Below, piece after piece: positions 30,001-36,000 of a DNA stretch of 49,226 nt. The stretch's first letter is position 1. Every line of letters begins with the position of its first letter. This DNA comes from Escherichia coli (lineage in GTDB: Bacteria; Pseudomonadota; Gammaproteobacteria; Enterobacterales; Enterobacteriaceae): NCBI RefSeq assembly GCF_003334765.1, contig NZ_QOWT01000030.1; one strand, given 5' to 3'. Position numbers: made by a program.

Positions 30001-33000
30001 TGAAAAAGACAGACATACCGACGGAAATGTTTCAAAAATCCACTCAATGCGGGCGATTGCGGCACGCAAAACATTTTCTCCGGTAAGGATTTTTTCGGTT
30101 AAAAGCGTATCACTCATTTTCCTGGCTTTATGTCGAATAATTCTGTTTATACATTCATGCAAACTTCATTAATAACTCACCGCTTTGGGGATAAATAATA
30201 ACAACAAAAATCTTCAGATATTAACCTGGTTGTTGGATTTGTTATCACATCCTTTATCCACCTGCTTCTTACTGGTAACACATCTGGAAAATCCATGCAT
30301 TTTCAACATATACTATCCTTTCAACTTGTAAATAAGAAAATATGATGCAGATGGTGAACAATTCAAATATCATTTTGCAGGAAGTATTCACTGTAATAGA
30401 ATTACCCCCTGATAAAGTTTATTCACTAAGGAATTATTCAACAGAAACATTCCCTGTTAGCTTTGAGCAATAGCACTTATTTTTATATGTATCAGGAATA
30501 CGTACGTTGATGTAACCAAAACAAAGAAGCCTGTGTCCATGGGGTTCGTACAATTGTGTGTGGCACATGACCAAATCAGGTTTGAGACCTCCCGCTGCAA
30601 TATTTTTTATTCAGATTTTAGCCTGTCAGGCCTGACAGAAACGCTCCCAACTTCCCTTCTATATCACTGTCTATAGTACGTAATCTTAGCAATGGCAGGC
30701 CGCATTTCTTCAGTATACTGTTTTTAAGTTCATCACGTTCAGCCTGAACACTGGTCAGATGATAACCTCCATCCACTTCAATAACCCCTAATGGAGTCTT
30801 CCCGACCTTATAGTAAACAACAAAGTCACAACTGGCCCGGTTACGCATGAATAACTGTTCACGGTGTGTAAAATCCCCCCGCTCCAGCAACACCAACTGA
30901 TTCAGCGCTATTTGTGAATGAAACATCATACTCCGATAACTATCCTGCGACAGGATATCCCGCAACAGGCAGGCCACAATCTGTTCTGACTTAAAGTGTG
31001 AATCATTTGAATTCAATCTACTATTCAGTCGTTCCAGTGATTTGTCATACTCACTGTACAGCAAATCAAATGCTGATATGACCGGGCTCTCGAAAATCTC
31101 TCCGTCATCAGCGTAGTATTTGATGTAACGAATCAGCGCCGCAATATGTCCAGCGTGGCGTTCAAATACATCATTACCAGTCACCAGCGTAAATTTATTT
31201 CGGGCCCTTGAAACAGCGACATTCACCAGTTCAGGATTATCAACAAACGCGATGTTCCGACTGTGCTGGCTGCTGCGCTTCTTATCCAGCACAGTGGAAA
31301 ACACAATTTCATCGCACTCCCGTCCCTGAAATTTATGCACCGTCGATTTCACAAAATCAGCAGGCAGCACTTTTTCAGCCAGATTAACCTGTGCATTATA
31401 TGGGGCAATGTATCCCCTGCTACTTTCTTCATCCCAGTAATGACCTTCCAGAGATTCAAGCTCCCTGAGATTTGAAAAATTACGGGTATGGTTTCCTTTT
31501 GCCGTGATGACCAGAGATAATGAGGCTTCACCGGAATCAACCGTTAACGGTATCAGAGCATTATCATAAAACTGCTTATTACAAAATTGAATGATTTTAG
31601 GATGACAACGATAATGCTCTTTAAGAAGGGTTACTGGCACCATGTTCCTGAACAACATACAAACCGAATCAAGTAGACTATATTTCTCACAATTATAGTA
31701 TTCTGCCGGTGGAGATGGGCTGTTCGGGAGTAATACAGGAACATGTGGAAGTTGCTTACGATCCCCTACAACGATTACATTACGGGCACATCCCAGTCCC
31801 AGAATGCCCGGAACAATATCCTGCTGCGAGGCTTCATCAATAATAACATAATCAAGAAGGGCCCCCTTGCCGATAGAGTTAATAATCGAATGCGTACTGC
31901 TACCAATAATCGGAAAACGCTTTATAAAACGGTCAAATTCATCCCTGTATGTCTCTGCCGAGAATGAACTTCTTGTTGAAACATTTCTTCGCAGATGTTG
32001 CTTTAAATAAAGCATAGACCATGATGTCAGGCGCCCCAGTAAAATTTTAAAATCAGATTTTTTAAATACTTCCTCATATTCATTCAGAGAAATTTGTTTT
32101 TCCCGGATATTTTTTTCATAATAAGAAAGCTGAAGAGAAGTAAATAGCGCCAGCCTTCTCTCCGGAATCATCAATGGTTTGACTTTCAGTATCATGAAGT
32201 TTAACAACAAATCAATTCTGTTTCTGAATCCAATCCGCCTGTCAGAAAGGTAATGAATATAAGCCATCAGGTCGGTTGTTTTTTGTGAGGAAAATCGGTA
32301 TTTGTGAGAAAAAAGCTCCTCCGGTCGAAGATTCTGACTCTGCCATTGCTGCAGGTATTTATACTCAATATTCAGCTCATTAATTTCTGCTTTTAACGAA
32401 GCGACCTGGTTAATGGCATTCAGGTGTTTTTTCACTTGTTGAAGTACATCATCAATCGCATTTGCAGACGGTGAGTCAGGTAAGACTTCCTCAGAACGCG
32501 AAATCGACGTTGAAAAAAACTGTTGCCTGTTCTCCGTACTCCCCAGTCGTGCCATCACATATCCCAGTTGCTGTTTGTCCATCTTTTCATAAACATTACT
32601 GACAGCTGAGTTATTATTGGACAAAATTGCCACTGTTTTATTCTGAATTAATATATTAGCAACAATATTGAGTATAGTCTGTGTTTTACCTGTTCCAGGT
32701 GGTCCTTCAATAACTGAAATCTGTGAGGAAAATGCCCGTTCGACAGCCAGCAACTGACTTTCATTAAGACCAAACGGAAAAATCAAACCCCATGGCGAAT
32801 CACGTTTTTTACTCTGTCCTGAACAGTATGCATGCAAGGCGGTATCCGGATGAGGAACTATTTTCTTTATCTGCCTAAGGATATTCTCATCGATATTTCT
32901 GTTATTACCACGGGCATAAAAAATACGTTCATTAGCCACCCTACACAAGTAATTAAACACGGCATGCTCTGTAAATGCTGAACACTGTTGAAAGTCAAGG

Positions 33001-36000
33001 CCGGTCGTTTTCATGATGTAGGGTCGTTCACCCTCGCGGTAATAAACAGCAGCATATTTATCACCATATATAATAACCAGTTCAGCCCGGGATGTTACAG
33101 CGTTCCCTTTCCTTTCGAGGAAAACATTTCGCAAATTTACAGTTGGCGTTATCTGACATACAGAAAGCGGACGAGTATATTTTCTCCCGCTGCGAAAATG
33201 ACAGGTCAGCATAACCTCTCTGTCGTCATTTCCAGCCCACAGCGTCCAGTCGGTAATTTTATGAGTCTTATTTTCACCGTCAACACAAATCGTGACCATA
33301 TTCTTACTCAGAAATTATCATTTAACTTACGGAAAATTGTTAAGGCACTCCCGATATTAGCTCCGGAGGATTTTCCACAACTCCGGGACTGTTAACATAT
33401 TTCTGCCTGCCATATATACATTGAATTTAGTCATAACAGTCAATACCAGAATTACAGGAATGCGATGCCGATACGCTGGTTATTGAATACTGGTAGCCCC
33501 TGAGCACTAATTCATCACGATACTCTGTATTTACTGTTTTCACTGCTTTTTACAACCATTCCCCCAGGTAAAATGCTGCTCCTCCGGTGATGGCTGTGTC
33601 AGAAACTGCCATCCCGGAATAGCCACGCTGACCGCCAGCAATGCCGCACAGACACCAGCCACAAACGGTTTCAGAAACGTGGGCGGGGATTTCTGAAGGG
33701 AGGGTGACTGCTCCGCCTGCACTTTCCCCTTGCGATTATCAAGGCTCAGTGCATCCAGACGCACCGCGCCATTTGCCGCAAGCAGCCCTTCCCGGTTATC
33801 CACGCTTCCCGGCAGACTCAGCGAAAAATCCCCTGTTCCCGTCTGAATCAGACTGCCTTTACGATTTGACAGGCTTTGTGCCGATATCTGCAGTGTGTCG
33901 GCATTTATCGTACCGCCATTACTGCTGAACTGCCCGGCAGTCCGGGCGGAAAGCGTATCGGCACTCAGTTGCGCATTCTGTGTAGACAGATTTCCACTGG
34001 TTGCATTCAGCTCAGTATGTTGTCCCTGTATCCGGCTGTTACCTAAATCCAGCCCCTGCTCAATGTCCCGTAAATCCAGCAGAGAACCTTCGTGTGCCGG
34101 GAATGAGGAATACAACTGAATATAGTCATCACTGTCCGGTGTCAGACGCACATGTCGCACAACACCGGGAATAATAACCAGCCGGAGGATACCGCTTTTT
34201 AAATCCTGCGAAGGTGCCAGAACACGGGTGGTGACATAACCATGATCGACCAGACGGTTCTGCAATGTACTCATCAGCAGATTAATTCCTTTCGCCCCCA
34301 GGCAATGCCCGACCGCCCCGTTGGCGATTTTTTGTAAAGGCAGCCAGTGTGGTAACGCATCAGCCCCCTTCAGTTCCGTCTGTTTAATCTGAAAACAGGG
34401 CGTTTCAACAGGAAATTAATCTTATGGGCAAAAGAGCCAGGTGCAGAAAGGCGAACATCAGGGGCTGAAGGCGTCAGTTGTTGCTCAAGGGCTTCCTGAC
34501 GCTGCTGCTGAATGATAAATGCTTCATCTCCGCTACGCCGGACATCCGCTGCCTGAAGAGATAAAGGCGATAATAAAGCAGACATCAGTGTCAGTGACAG
34601 CAAGGACGGACAGCGCCGGAATAAGCTTTGTTCCTCAGTCCTCTCGTTCCTGCAACATAATTTTCCAGTCAAACGAAAAACCTTTTATTCATGTCATACC
34701 AACAATCACCAGCCTCCTGACGATACCTCCCACCATGTTTTGCGATGGCACGCTACCGCCCTTCCGGTATTTACCCGCATCAACCGGTACCAGAATGCTG
34801 AGTAACAAACCAGCCAGAATTGACTTAATTTTGATCATTATAGAATAATGATCTGAACTACAGCAACATGACAGATTTATCGATCGATATAACACAAATG
34901 AACAGTTCTTTATTCTGACTAATATCGCAAAAACAGCACATTACAAAATTTATAACCATAATTACTGGAAAAGTGCAGAAAATTATTCCACTGAATGCTT
35001 TTAATACAGTTGGTTAGCTTAAAAAATAGCAATTTTTGATTTCAGTCATTGAAAGTTGCAATGTTTGACGATTCAACAGCATTTAAGTGAGTTTCAGGAT
35101 ATGGGAAGGACATGAAAGGAGGAGCGCAATAAAATACACAGGAAGAAGGGGAAAATGTTTCGTAAAAACAGAAAATTAACAGCGCACATCAGGAAACGCA
35201 GTCTCCTGATTCAGTGCTATCACATGAAAATTTAGTTAACTGTTACCGTACTAAAATTTATGTCAGAAGATGTTCCATTACCGAAAGTCAATCAGCGATA
35301 CAAAGACGATCATGGTGCGCTTGTCACCCTGACCAGTGTTGAGGAAACCCGGGTGGTGTTTATGCAGGACGGCTATCCGCATCCCTGCATGCGACCGATG
35401 TACAACTTTCTGGGAAAATTCAAACCCGAACCCCGGGAAGAAAAAGAATAAAACGAAATCCCTGCCGGCAATCACACTACCTGATAGCAGCATAATCCAC
35501 TTATTAATTCTCATCCCCGGAGACAAGCCCAGAAAACCACTCCGGGTGTTCACTGTATGCCGTGTTCAGCGCATCCCTGGAAACGTTTATATAAAAGCTG
35601 TCCTGCAATTTGCGGGTAACAACTTCTGCCAGGCGATTCCGGTTATCCACCAGTCCGGCATAACCTCTCTCTGCCAGCCACTCATTCAGTTCATGTTCCA
35701 GAGACAGATTGATAATATCATAATCGGACCTTGCCATTCCCGTTTCCTTAGCACATGTTTTCAGGCACGGGGATAAAGTATAAAGAATGTCATACTGCTG
35801 CTGCCAGAGCAATATTCCCCCTGATGGTTGTATCAGAGATGGTATGCCGGTACTTTGCGGGTTGTTCCCGTCAGGTTATCGTGCACCTCCACGGTCGTGG
35901 TCACCACCGGCATTCCGGCCTTTCTCAGCCTCAGAACATCAGCCGCAATACGCTGACTGCCAAACCAGAACAGGCCGTCCAGTGCAGTCACCAGTAAACC

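Follow-up and report, generated by a model that had tools for sequence, protein, structure and literature searches.

What does a large helicase-nuclease encoded on a pathogenicity island do for its Escherichia coli host, and does it act alone or together with the operon that lies next to it? The question is raised by an 893-aa protein encoded in a stretch of 49,226 nucleotides of E. coli O145:H28 (contig NZ_QOWT01000030.1 of assembly GCF_003334765.1), referred to below as the window. The window is 100% identical to NZ_CP007136.1 and is part of the tellurite-resistance/iha/aerobactin island of this serotype. An earlier note, made from the DNA sequence, had described the protein as a helicase fused to a nuclease and had proposed that it is a defence effector paired with the neighbouring genes. 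The open reading frame (ORF) reported there is borne out by the ORF list, by its translation, by RefSeq (WP_000256231.1, "AAA domain-containing protein"), which has 100% identical coding sequences (CDS) in O145:H28 genomes, and by a conserved start codon, the N-termini of orthologues reading MV(T/S)I. It is a real and intact gene of the island. As argued below from sequence comparisons, its product appears to be a self-contained helicase-nuclease that travels as cargo of mobile islands and probably serves as an anti-phage or anti-plasmid effector.

In order to define the architecture of the protein, domain searches were combined with structure prediction. All superfamily 1 (SF1) motifs (PPGTGKT, DEASQQD, VGD.KQLP, HYRCHP, HKFQGRE and NVAVSRA) are invariant in 20 aligned orthologues; at the Walker A site, P200-T208 are strictly conserved and G199 is kept in at least 90% of them. 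Pfam assigned AAA_11 to residues 178-518 and AAA_12 to residues 549-583 and 625-707, and a profile built from 20 orthologues picked out PDB entries of IGHMBP2, Upf1, Sen1/SETX and Dna2 (1e-18 to 2e-21), the Sen1 and SETX matches covering residues 465-700. Together, these sequence comparisons show an intact Upf1/Dna2-type SF1B motor in which all ATPase and helicase motifs are conserved, as the earlier note had recognised. That note had also placed a coiled-coil insertion of about 250 aa in the core. The insertion is real and all-helical in the AlphaFold2 model (helices at residues 279-322, 338-352, 358-370, 379-414 and 417-439), but it is smaller, spanning ~200 aa (residues ~255-461). The full-length model was built from 20 rather similar sequences and is mediocre, with a pLDDT score of 62 and values below 50 in RecA domain 2; only the N-terminal domain, RecA domain 1 with its insertion and the C-terminal domain were used.

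The C-terminus carries the predicted nuclease. The last 128 residues match DUF2726 at 1e-13, and among 30 diverse relatives DUF2726 was recognised in 30, MTES_1575 (the family of the nuclease of the Hhe system considered below) in 16 and DUF559 in five. Residues D825, F826, E841, D843, G844, H847, Q852, R855, D856, K859 and R872 are invariant in these relatives, and D825, E841, D843, H847, D856 and K859 are consistent with an active site in which they would have catalytic roles. A restriction-endonuclease-like fold is present in this domain, its best structural match being the homing endonuclease I-Bth0305I. The earlier note had named the lack of a nuclease fold at the C-terminus as a ground for refutation, and on this count it is not refuted. 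DUF2726 has been placed with Vsr and DUF559 in the PD-(D/E)xK superfamily (PMC3424549) and described as a restriction-endonuclease-fold DNase that is fused to defence-type domains (PMC3710099). Searches of PHROGs gave zero matches for either the N-terminal or the C-terminal domain.

The N-terminal ~180 residues, which had been left unassigned, keep that status: neither residues 1-177 of the query nor the same segment of its relatives (38/38) gave a Pfam, PHROG or NCBIfam match. A dedicated AlphaFold2 model of this segment (pLDDT 89) consists of ten strands followed by three helices, the strands being arranged as small beta-barrels. When this model was submitted to Foldseek against AFDB50, the domain was met solely at the N-terminus of the same helicase family, and an N-domain profile run against 1.84 billion representative proteins retrieved 65 clusters, nearly all of which have the ~900-aa architecture or are fragments of it. 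A 1,631-aa Bacteroidota repeat protein (P0180), in which 40 residues of the domain were matched five times, was treated as beta-hairpin repeat noise. These results show that residues 1-177 form a family-specific domain with no assigned family, and the three-part architecture of the protein is thus supported by both domain searches and structure prediction.

The nature of the nucleic acid that such a protein would attack was then considered. A DNA target is moderately favoured, because the characterised Vsr-fold enzymes that we recovered cut DNA and because Dna2 scores no lower than the RNA helicases do. An RNA-directed effector would be the alternative: the motor, being Upf1-like, would follow RNA of phages or aberrant RNA, and RNA would also be what the nuclease cleaves. 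Such an activity has been proposed in the case of CoCoNuT CnuH; for Mokosh it has been suggested. The closest solved relatives are indeed mostly RNA helicases (IGHMBP2, Upf1, SETX and ZNFX1), and RNA has been argued to be a possible substrate of the Vsr-like effectors to which CnuH is fused (PMC11090510). However, I-Bth0305I and Vsr itself (PMC3424549) act on DNA, Dna2 reaches equally high scores, and the Sm-like matches are too weak to assign a ligand. We consider an RNA-directed activity rather unlikely.

We then asked whether the protein belongs to a known system. Type II Mokosh is a single-gene Upf1-like helicase with a nuclease; it confers protection on E. coli, for which the ATP-binding site and the nuclease site are both required (Millman et al. 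2022, bioRxiv 10.1101/2022.05.11.491447). As in MkoC of type II Mokosh, a COG1112 Upf1-like helicase is followed in one chain by a C-terminal nuclease, and the cores of MkoC, of type I MkoA and of the present protein are clearly homologous. In contrast to Mokosh, whose nuclease is a phospholipase D (PLD), the nuclease here has the Vsr/DUF559 fold (DUF2726); Pfam detected no PLD-type domain in the protein. The N-terminal beta-barrel domain and the ~200-aa helical insertion matched no Mokosh counterpart, and there is neither a kinase domain nor an MkoB partner. Hhe (NCBIfam NF042953, PADLOC PDLC02194) likewise combines, in a single large protein encoded by one gene, an AAA_11/AAA_12 SF1 helicase with a restriction-endonuclease-fold domain. 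However, Hhe proteins are ~1,800-1,900 aa long and carry DUF4011, while the present protein has 893 aa and aligns with them by the helicase core alone. It scores 76 bits with the NCBIfam model, whose cut-off is 2,000, and the Pfam scan revealed no DUF4011, so that membership of Hhe was rejected. ProA (NCBIfam NF058533) was rejected in the same way (110 bits where the cut-off is 1,500, the best stretch aligning residues 168-300 only), as were Nhi, Gabija GajB, Septu PtuA and DpdJ, for which PADLOC gave P-loop-level matches or none.

Among the literature descriptions that we found, the most similar architecture is that of CnuH of CoCoNuT III-B (Bell et al. 2024, PMC11090510). In this Upf1-like SF1 helicase, Walker A is immediately followed by a large insertion of helical coiled coil, a Vsr-like PD-(D/E)xK nuclease is directly fused to the motor, and the N-terminus bears an extra domain of a nucleic-acid-binding type. 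Compared by description, the two proteins share the helicase, the helical insertion after Walker A, the Vsr-like nuclease and an extra N-terminal domain. They differ in that the N-terminus of CnuH is a Sul7s-like winged helix-turn-helix instead of beta-barrels, and in that CnuH is defined by an operon with the McrB-like CnuB, the McrC-like CnuC and the coiled-coil CnuA. No CnuA-, CnuB- or CnuC-type gene was found in the annotated E. coli island, and none was recurrent at 82 other loci. Nhi, Hna and HmaA provide a precedent of another kind: as summarised in PMC11232893 (from Bari 2022 and Sather 2023), they are solitary helicase-nuclease proteins in which one gene is sufficient for phage defence, and for HmaA a model is proposed in which the helicase senses features of phage replication or SSB and the nuclease is the effector. 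Their helicases are of other families (that of Nhi is a DUF2075-type SF1, those of Hna and HmaA are SF2) and their nucleases differ in family and position; PADLOC revealed no sequence relationship of the present protein to them past the P-loop. In eukaryotic and archaeal Dna2, which is a core replication factor, the nuclease is RecB-like, contains an iron-sulfur cluster and forms the N-terminal domain. Unlike Dna2, the protein studied here has a C-terminal, Vsr-like nuclease and is encoded by an accessory gene. As it falls outside Mokosh, Hhe, ProA and CoCoNuT III-B, it may work like such systems without being one of them. By analogy, it is best read as a relative of type II Mokosh, of Hhe and of CnuH in which the nuclease has been swapped, and which would work in the manner of type II Mokosh, Hhe, Nhi, Hna or HmaA with another nuclease and another sensor domain.

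The distribution of the gene bears directly on its function. Homologues number more than 4,000. Full-length orthologues that are 53-82% identical occur in gamma-, beta- and alpha-proteobacteria, proteins of Oceanobacillus and Enterococcus are 55-57% identical to the E. coli one, and distant relatives (33-40%) that keep the helicase and DUF2726 are found in Bacillota, Bacteroidota, Actinomycetota and others. The gene is present in 648 of 5,426 complete E. coli genomes (12%), with its length intact in 642, and its carriers include O145, O111, O104:H4 and O103 pathogens. Phage genomes almost never contain it (50,697 records yielded two metagenomic fragments), and it is rarely found on plasmids (18 of 72,556, most of these being megaplasmids). 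In O157:H7, the loss of one A from a short run splits the gene, and the EDL933 locus (9001-11681) carries a 171-aa ORF that corresponds almost exactly to the N-terminal domain and a 722-aa helicase-nuclease ORF; a split annotation was seen in ~10 of 40 evenly sampled E. coli carriers. These comparisons point clearly to a patchy distribution with horizontal transfer.

Such a pattern has to be set against the possibility that the protein is an accessory enzyme of DNA repair or recombination, a bacterial Dna2-like helicase-nuclease for 5' flaps, stalled forks or mismatches, the last by Vsr-like nicking. The founding member of the Vsr/DUF559 fold is a repair nickase (PMC3424549), the sequence is very highly conserved, and several loci lie among housekeeping genes, one of them beside uvrC. 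However, the gene is patchily present within E. coli, it has crossed phyla and has a foreign guanine-cytosine (GC) content, it is sited in islands and in an integrative and conjugative element (ICE), and it has been lost by frameshift across the successful O157:H7 lineage at no obvious cost. Moreover, no repair gene is a conserved neighbour at 82 loci. A role in repair is, in our opinion, not probable.

Outside E. coli, the genomic contexts were surveyed at 88 loci from 87 species, 85 of which were analysed by tblastn (82 + 3) and three through Pfam annotation of called genes; flanks of up to 10 kb were available in the 82-locus set (8 kb at three loci). Clustering of the flanking ORFs of these 82 loci revealed no recurrent partner, the commonest neighbour being the housekeeping gene guaA (7 loci). 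In Serratia, Pseudomonas agarici and Methylobacillus the orthologue is a lone insertion among housekeeping genes, and in several unrelated taxa it directly follows guaA, as in Photobacterium, where it is a lone insertion 73 bp past that gene. In Paraburkholderia its island, which adjoins guaA, also carries a resolvase, IS21 and HipAB; in Salmonella its companions in a variable region are a LAGLIDADG gene, a NERD-UvrD helicase and remnants of IS66; and in Telmatospirillum siberiense it lies inside an ICE-like element. The lone insertions, the guaA islands and the ICE form the pattern of a mobile, self-sufficient accessory gene. At the Telmatospirillum locus (12903-15487), a same-strand 469-aa unannotated gene and a 344-aa HNH_5 gene were observed after the orthologue; they were not seen at other loci.

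In Billgrantia desiderata the gene stands alone between two copies of the guaA 3'-end (9536-9727 and 12897-13088; ~200 nt, 91% identical), with no integrase between them. These repeats suggest either that an island targeting guaA has decayed here or that the gene has spread through recombination between conserved guaA sequences. They could also indicate a selfish or mobility gene, which would serve the spread or maintenance of a small carrier element, for instance by homing-like cleavage, and not the protection of the host. The lone insertion in Photobacterium, the LAGLIDADG gene that adjoins the Salmonella orthologue and the homing endonuclease found as best structural match of the nuclease domain would agree with this. 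However, most loci are away from guaA, a 900-aa motor protein is far bigger than known homing enzymes, Pfam detected no recombinase or transposase domain in it, and the repeats are equally explained by decay of a larger guaA-targeting island such as that of Paraburkholderia. A selfish gene is therefore a highly improbable explanation.

The reading that we prefer, a stand-alone effector of defence, draws on the homology of the core to validated defence helicases, on the precedent of type II Mokosh and of the solitary Nhi, Hna and HmaA, and on the accessory, horizontally transferred and phage-excluded distribution. With PADLOC, the helicase core matched MkoA at 1.1e-43 (residues 178-729), MkoC at 1.9e-40, PDC-S37 at 7.9e-37 and Hhe at 1.3e-16; with NCBIfam it matched ProA at 4.9e-32 and Hhe at 1.1e-21. 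We also counted in its favour the GC content, which is foreign relative to the surroundings, the patchy presence in islands and an ICE, the frameshift inactivation in O157:H7 and the Old-family nuclease that occupies the same slot in strain S88 (see below). The MkoA and MkoC matches and the stand-alone accessory contexts make the likeness to single-protein helicase-nuclease effectors, drawn in the earlier note, a reasonable one.

Several observations weigh against this assignment. Neither PADLOC 2.0 nor NCBIfam 20 has a model of its own for the family, and all matches in these collections come from the shared helicase core and lie far below the curated cut-offs. Literature searches on DUF2726 with helicase or defence, on IbrA/IbrB and on AAA_11/AAA_12 returned no study of this helicase-nuclease. 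The RecA2 portion of the structural model is unreliable. Over alpha-, beta- and gamma-proteobacteria the mean column identity amounts to 70%, a degree of conservation that is uncommon among defence genes. Finally, recognisable defence, toxin or mobile genes were found in only some of the nine Pfam-annotated contexts (Salmonella, Paraburkholderia and Telmatospirillum), the others being housekeeping, a sample that is too small for statistics.

If the protein is a defence effector, it could operate as follows. Its task would be surveillance: within the cell it would look out for nucleic acid of foreign origin, for example a 5' single-stranded DNA tail or an intermediate that arises when a phage or plasmid replicates or recombines. 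The N-terminal barrels would bind this nucleic acid, or a foreign protein bound to it, ATP hydrolysis would power translocation in the 5'-to-3' direction, and the tethered Vsr-like domain would nick or cleave the DNA and so block replication of the invader. The helical arm would probably mediate oligomerisation, or else restrain the nuclease until a substrate is engaged.

It remained to be asked whether the effector acts alone or with the operon on its 3' side, which comprises ibrA (PAPS-reductase/PP-loop), ibrB (ParB-like), perC and a 214-aa ORF and is termed here the IbrAB operon. The position given for the helicase in the earlier note proved correct: it lies upstream of the operon on the same strand, separated from it by 455 bp if ibrA starts at an alternative TTG (30162) and by 500 bp if the RefSeq ATG is used, and the spacer is AT-rich. 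Several promoter-like sites were found in the spacer. As no terminator-like hairpin follows the helicase stop codon, the helicase and the operon may be co-transcribed in E. coli. The further proposal of that note, a modification/restriction pairing, would mean that both form one system in which IbrAB modifies DNA and the nuclease either spares modified self or attacks modified foreign DNA. Apart from the shared strand and the hairpin-free distance of 455-500 bp, the weak similarity of IbrA to BrxP (9e-8) and DndC (2e-4) in PADLOC is consistent with this, as is the retention of the whole 6.2-kb helicase-ibrAB block in 562 of the 642 E. coli carriers. However, all 562 belong to one island with at least 95% nucleotide identity; this linkage is clonal and therefore represents one evolutionary event and not independent evidence.

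The comparisons made beyond this island argue against the pairing. IbrAB-like DNA is present in ~2,179 E. coli genomes, more than 1,500 of which have no helicase gene. In E. coli S88 the same four-gene operon is 93% identical, but it stands behind a different gene, and homology stops at window position 30119 (query position 2920), exactly at the ibrA start codon. The base composition of the genes also differs: the helicase gene has 41.8% GC (39.7% at third codon positions, GC3) against 51-54% (GC3 53-57%) for ibrA, ibrB and perC, values that are 10-17 points apart. Homologues of IbrA, IbrB, PerC and the 214-aa protein were absent from all 82 non-E. coli loci (tblastn, ±8-10 kb) and, over the complete survey, no IbrA or IbrB homologue was found within 8-10 kb at 86 of the 88 loci (83 by tblastn, three by Pfam). 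Since the helicase is present with intact catalytic residues but without IbrAB in dozens of genera, IbrAB would not be needed for self-protection.

Edwardsiella anguillarum, a single species represented by two loci, is the sole exception: on the strand of the orthologue and 8.6-10 kb upstream of it, this species has ibrA (62% identical) and ibrB (49%). They are not adjacent to it: insertion sequence (IS) remnants and seven other annotated genes stand between ibrAB (3-1388) and the helicase orthologue (10001-12676). We take this proximity as a coincidence of island cargo, yet it is the one observation that favours a link. As judged from these data, the IbrAB operon is not supported as a partner and appears to be an unrelated neighbour of the helicase on one E. 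coli island; that the two form one system is very unlikely, and adjacency alone gives no ground for annotating IbrAB as the modification partner of the helicase. There is an equally slim chance of a facultative pairing in enterobacterial islands (those of E. coli and perhaps Edwardsiella), in which a DNA mark made by IbrAB would tune or redirect an otherwise autonomous helicase-nuclease and the N-terminal beta-barrel domain would read that mark or one made by a phage. If true, the protein would represent a new type of restriction enzyme, a single chain of Upf1 type that senses modification.

Other observations concern the surroundings of these genes. Upstream of the operon, the slot at 10052-12338 of the S88 locus carries a 214-aa ORF and an Old-family ATP-dependent nuclease gene (PADLOC Old 7e-48), the product of which aligns only from profile position 145 and may be without its N-terminus. 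The slot upstream of ibrAB may be a variable position for defence-type genes, and in strain EC958 the ibrAB pair is found in yet another context. On the other side, upstream of the helicase, RefSeq annotates a 348-aa "POTRA domain-containing protein" at 33540-34586, which is resolved into two ORFs (244 aa and 100 aa) in the ORF list and joined by RefSeq; it has the look of what is left of a transporter for two-partner secretion. More distantly, the region at ~3820-8170 of the window (NZ_CP007136.1 1313400-1317753) contains a three-gene cluster whose products are a dynamin-family protein of 794 aa, a member of the RdcB family and a phospholipase of the patatin-like type. This cluster adjoins antirestriction, JAB/RadC-like, DUF932 and CbtA/YeeU toxin-antitoxin genes and could be a further conflict-type module. 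The coordinates of the main features are collected in Table 1.

Table 1. Features of the helicase-nuclease gene and of the adjoining IbrAB operon, in positions of the window.
Feature	Position	Strand	Remarks
Sigma-70-like promoter, best match 5' of helicase start	33314..33343	-	TTAACA, 18 nt spacer, GATAAT; consensus scan, 10/12 positions; pattern match alone
CDS of the 893-aa helicase-nuclease, complete	30618..33299	-	ATG 33299, stop at 30618; ORF list and translation
N-terminal domain, residues 1-177	32769..33299	-	Specific to the helicase family; ten beta-strands (3-105), then three helices (113-159)
A6 run, codons 164-165	32805..32810	-	One-A loss splits the gene in O157:H7; window CDS aligned with EDL933
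Walker A GPPGTGKT, residues 199-206	32682..32705	-	Inside the AAA_11 match
All-helical, coiled-coil-like insertion in RecA domain 1, residues ~255-461	31917..32537	-	
Walker B DEAS, residues 488-491	31827..31838	-	D488, E489, A490 and S491 invariant
Remainder of helicase core, residues 462-730	31110..31916	-	Motifs III-VI (VGDRKQLP, HYRCHP, HKFQGRE, NVAVSRA); invariant columns, AAA_12; poor in the model (pLDDT below 50)
Vsr/DUF559-like PD-(D/E)xK nuclease domain (DUF2726), residues 766-893	30621..31004	-	GVIEVDGGYH at 30759-30788
AT-rich spacer, helicase stop to ibrA ATG	30118..30617	-	34% GC; boundary of the module common to other E. coli islands
ibrA, PAPS-reductase/PP-loop gene	28885-30117	-	RefSeq ATG 30117; alternative TTG 30162
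ibrB, ParB-like	28262-28900	-	
perC, PerC-family regulator gene	27914-28222	-	
214-aa ORF, last of the IbrAB operon	27249-27893	-	No NCBIfam or PADLOC family match; 41.7% GC

Many helicase-nuclease systems are already known. What appears to be new here, from the sequence record, is a widespread and unnamed candidate for a one-gene defence protein with a new N-terminal domain. If protection is shown, this would be a compact one-gene immune effector present in about one eighth of the complete RefSeq E. coli genomes and in many Proteobacteria and Bacillota. The N-terminal domain would then offer a new, well-modelled sensor-type domain for study, and the link between bacterial Upf1-like helicases and immunity would extend from the PLD nucleases of Mokosh to Vsr-fold nucleases that act alone.

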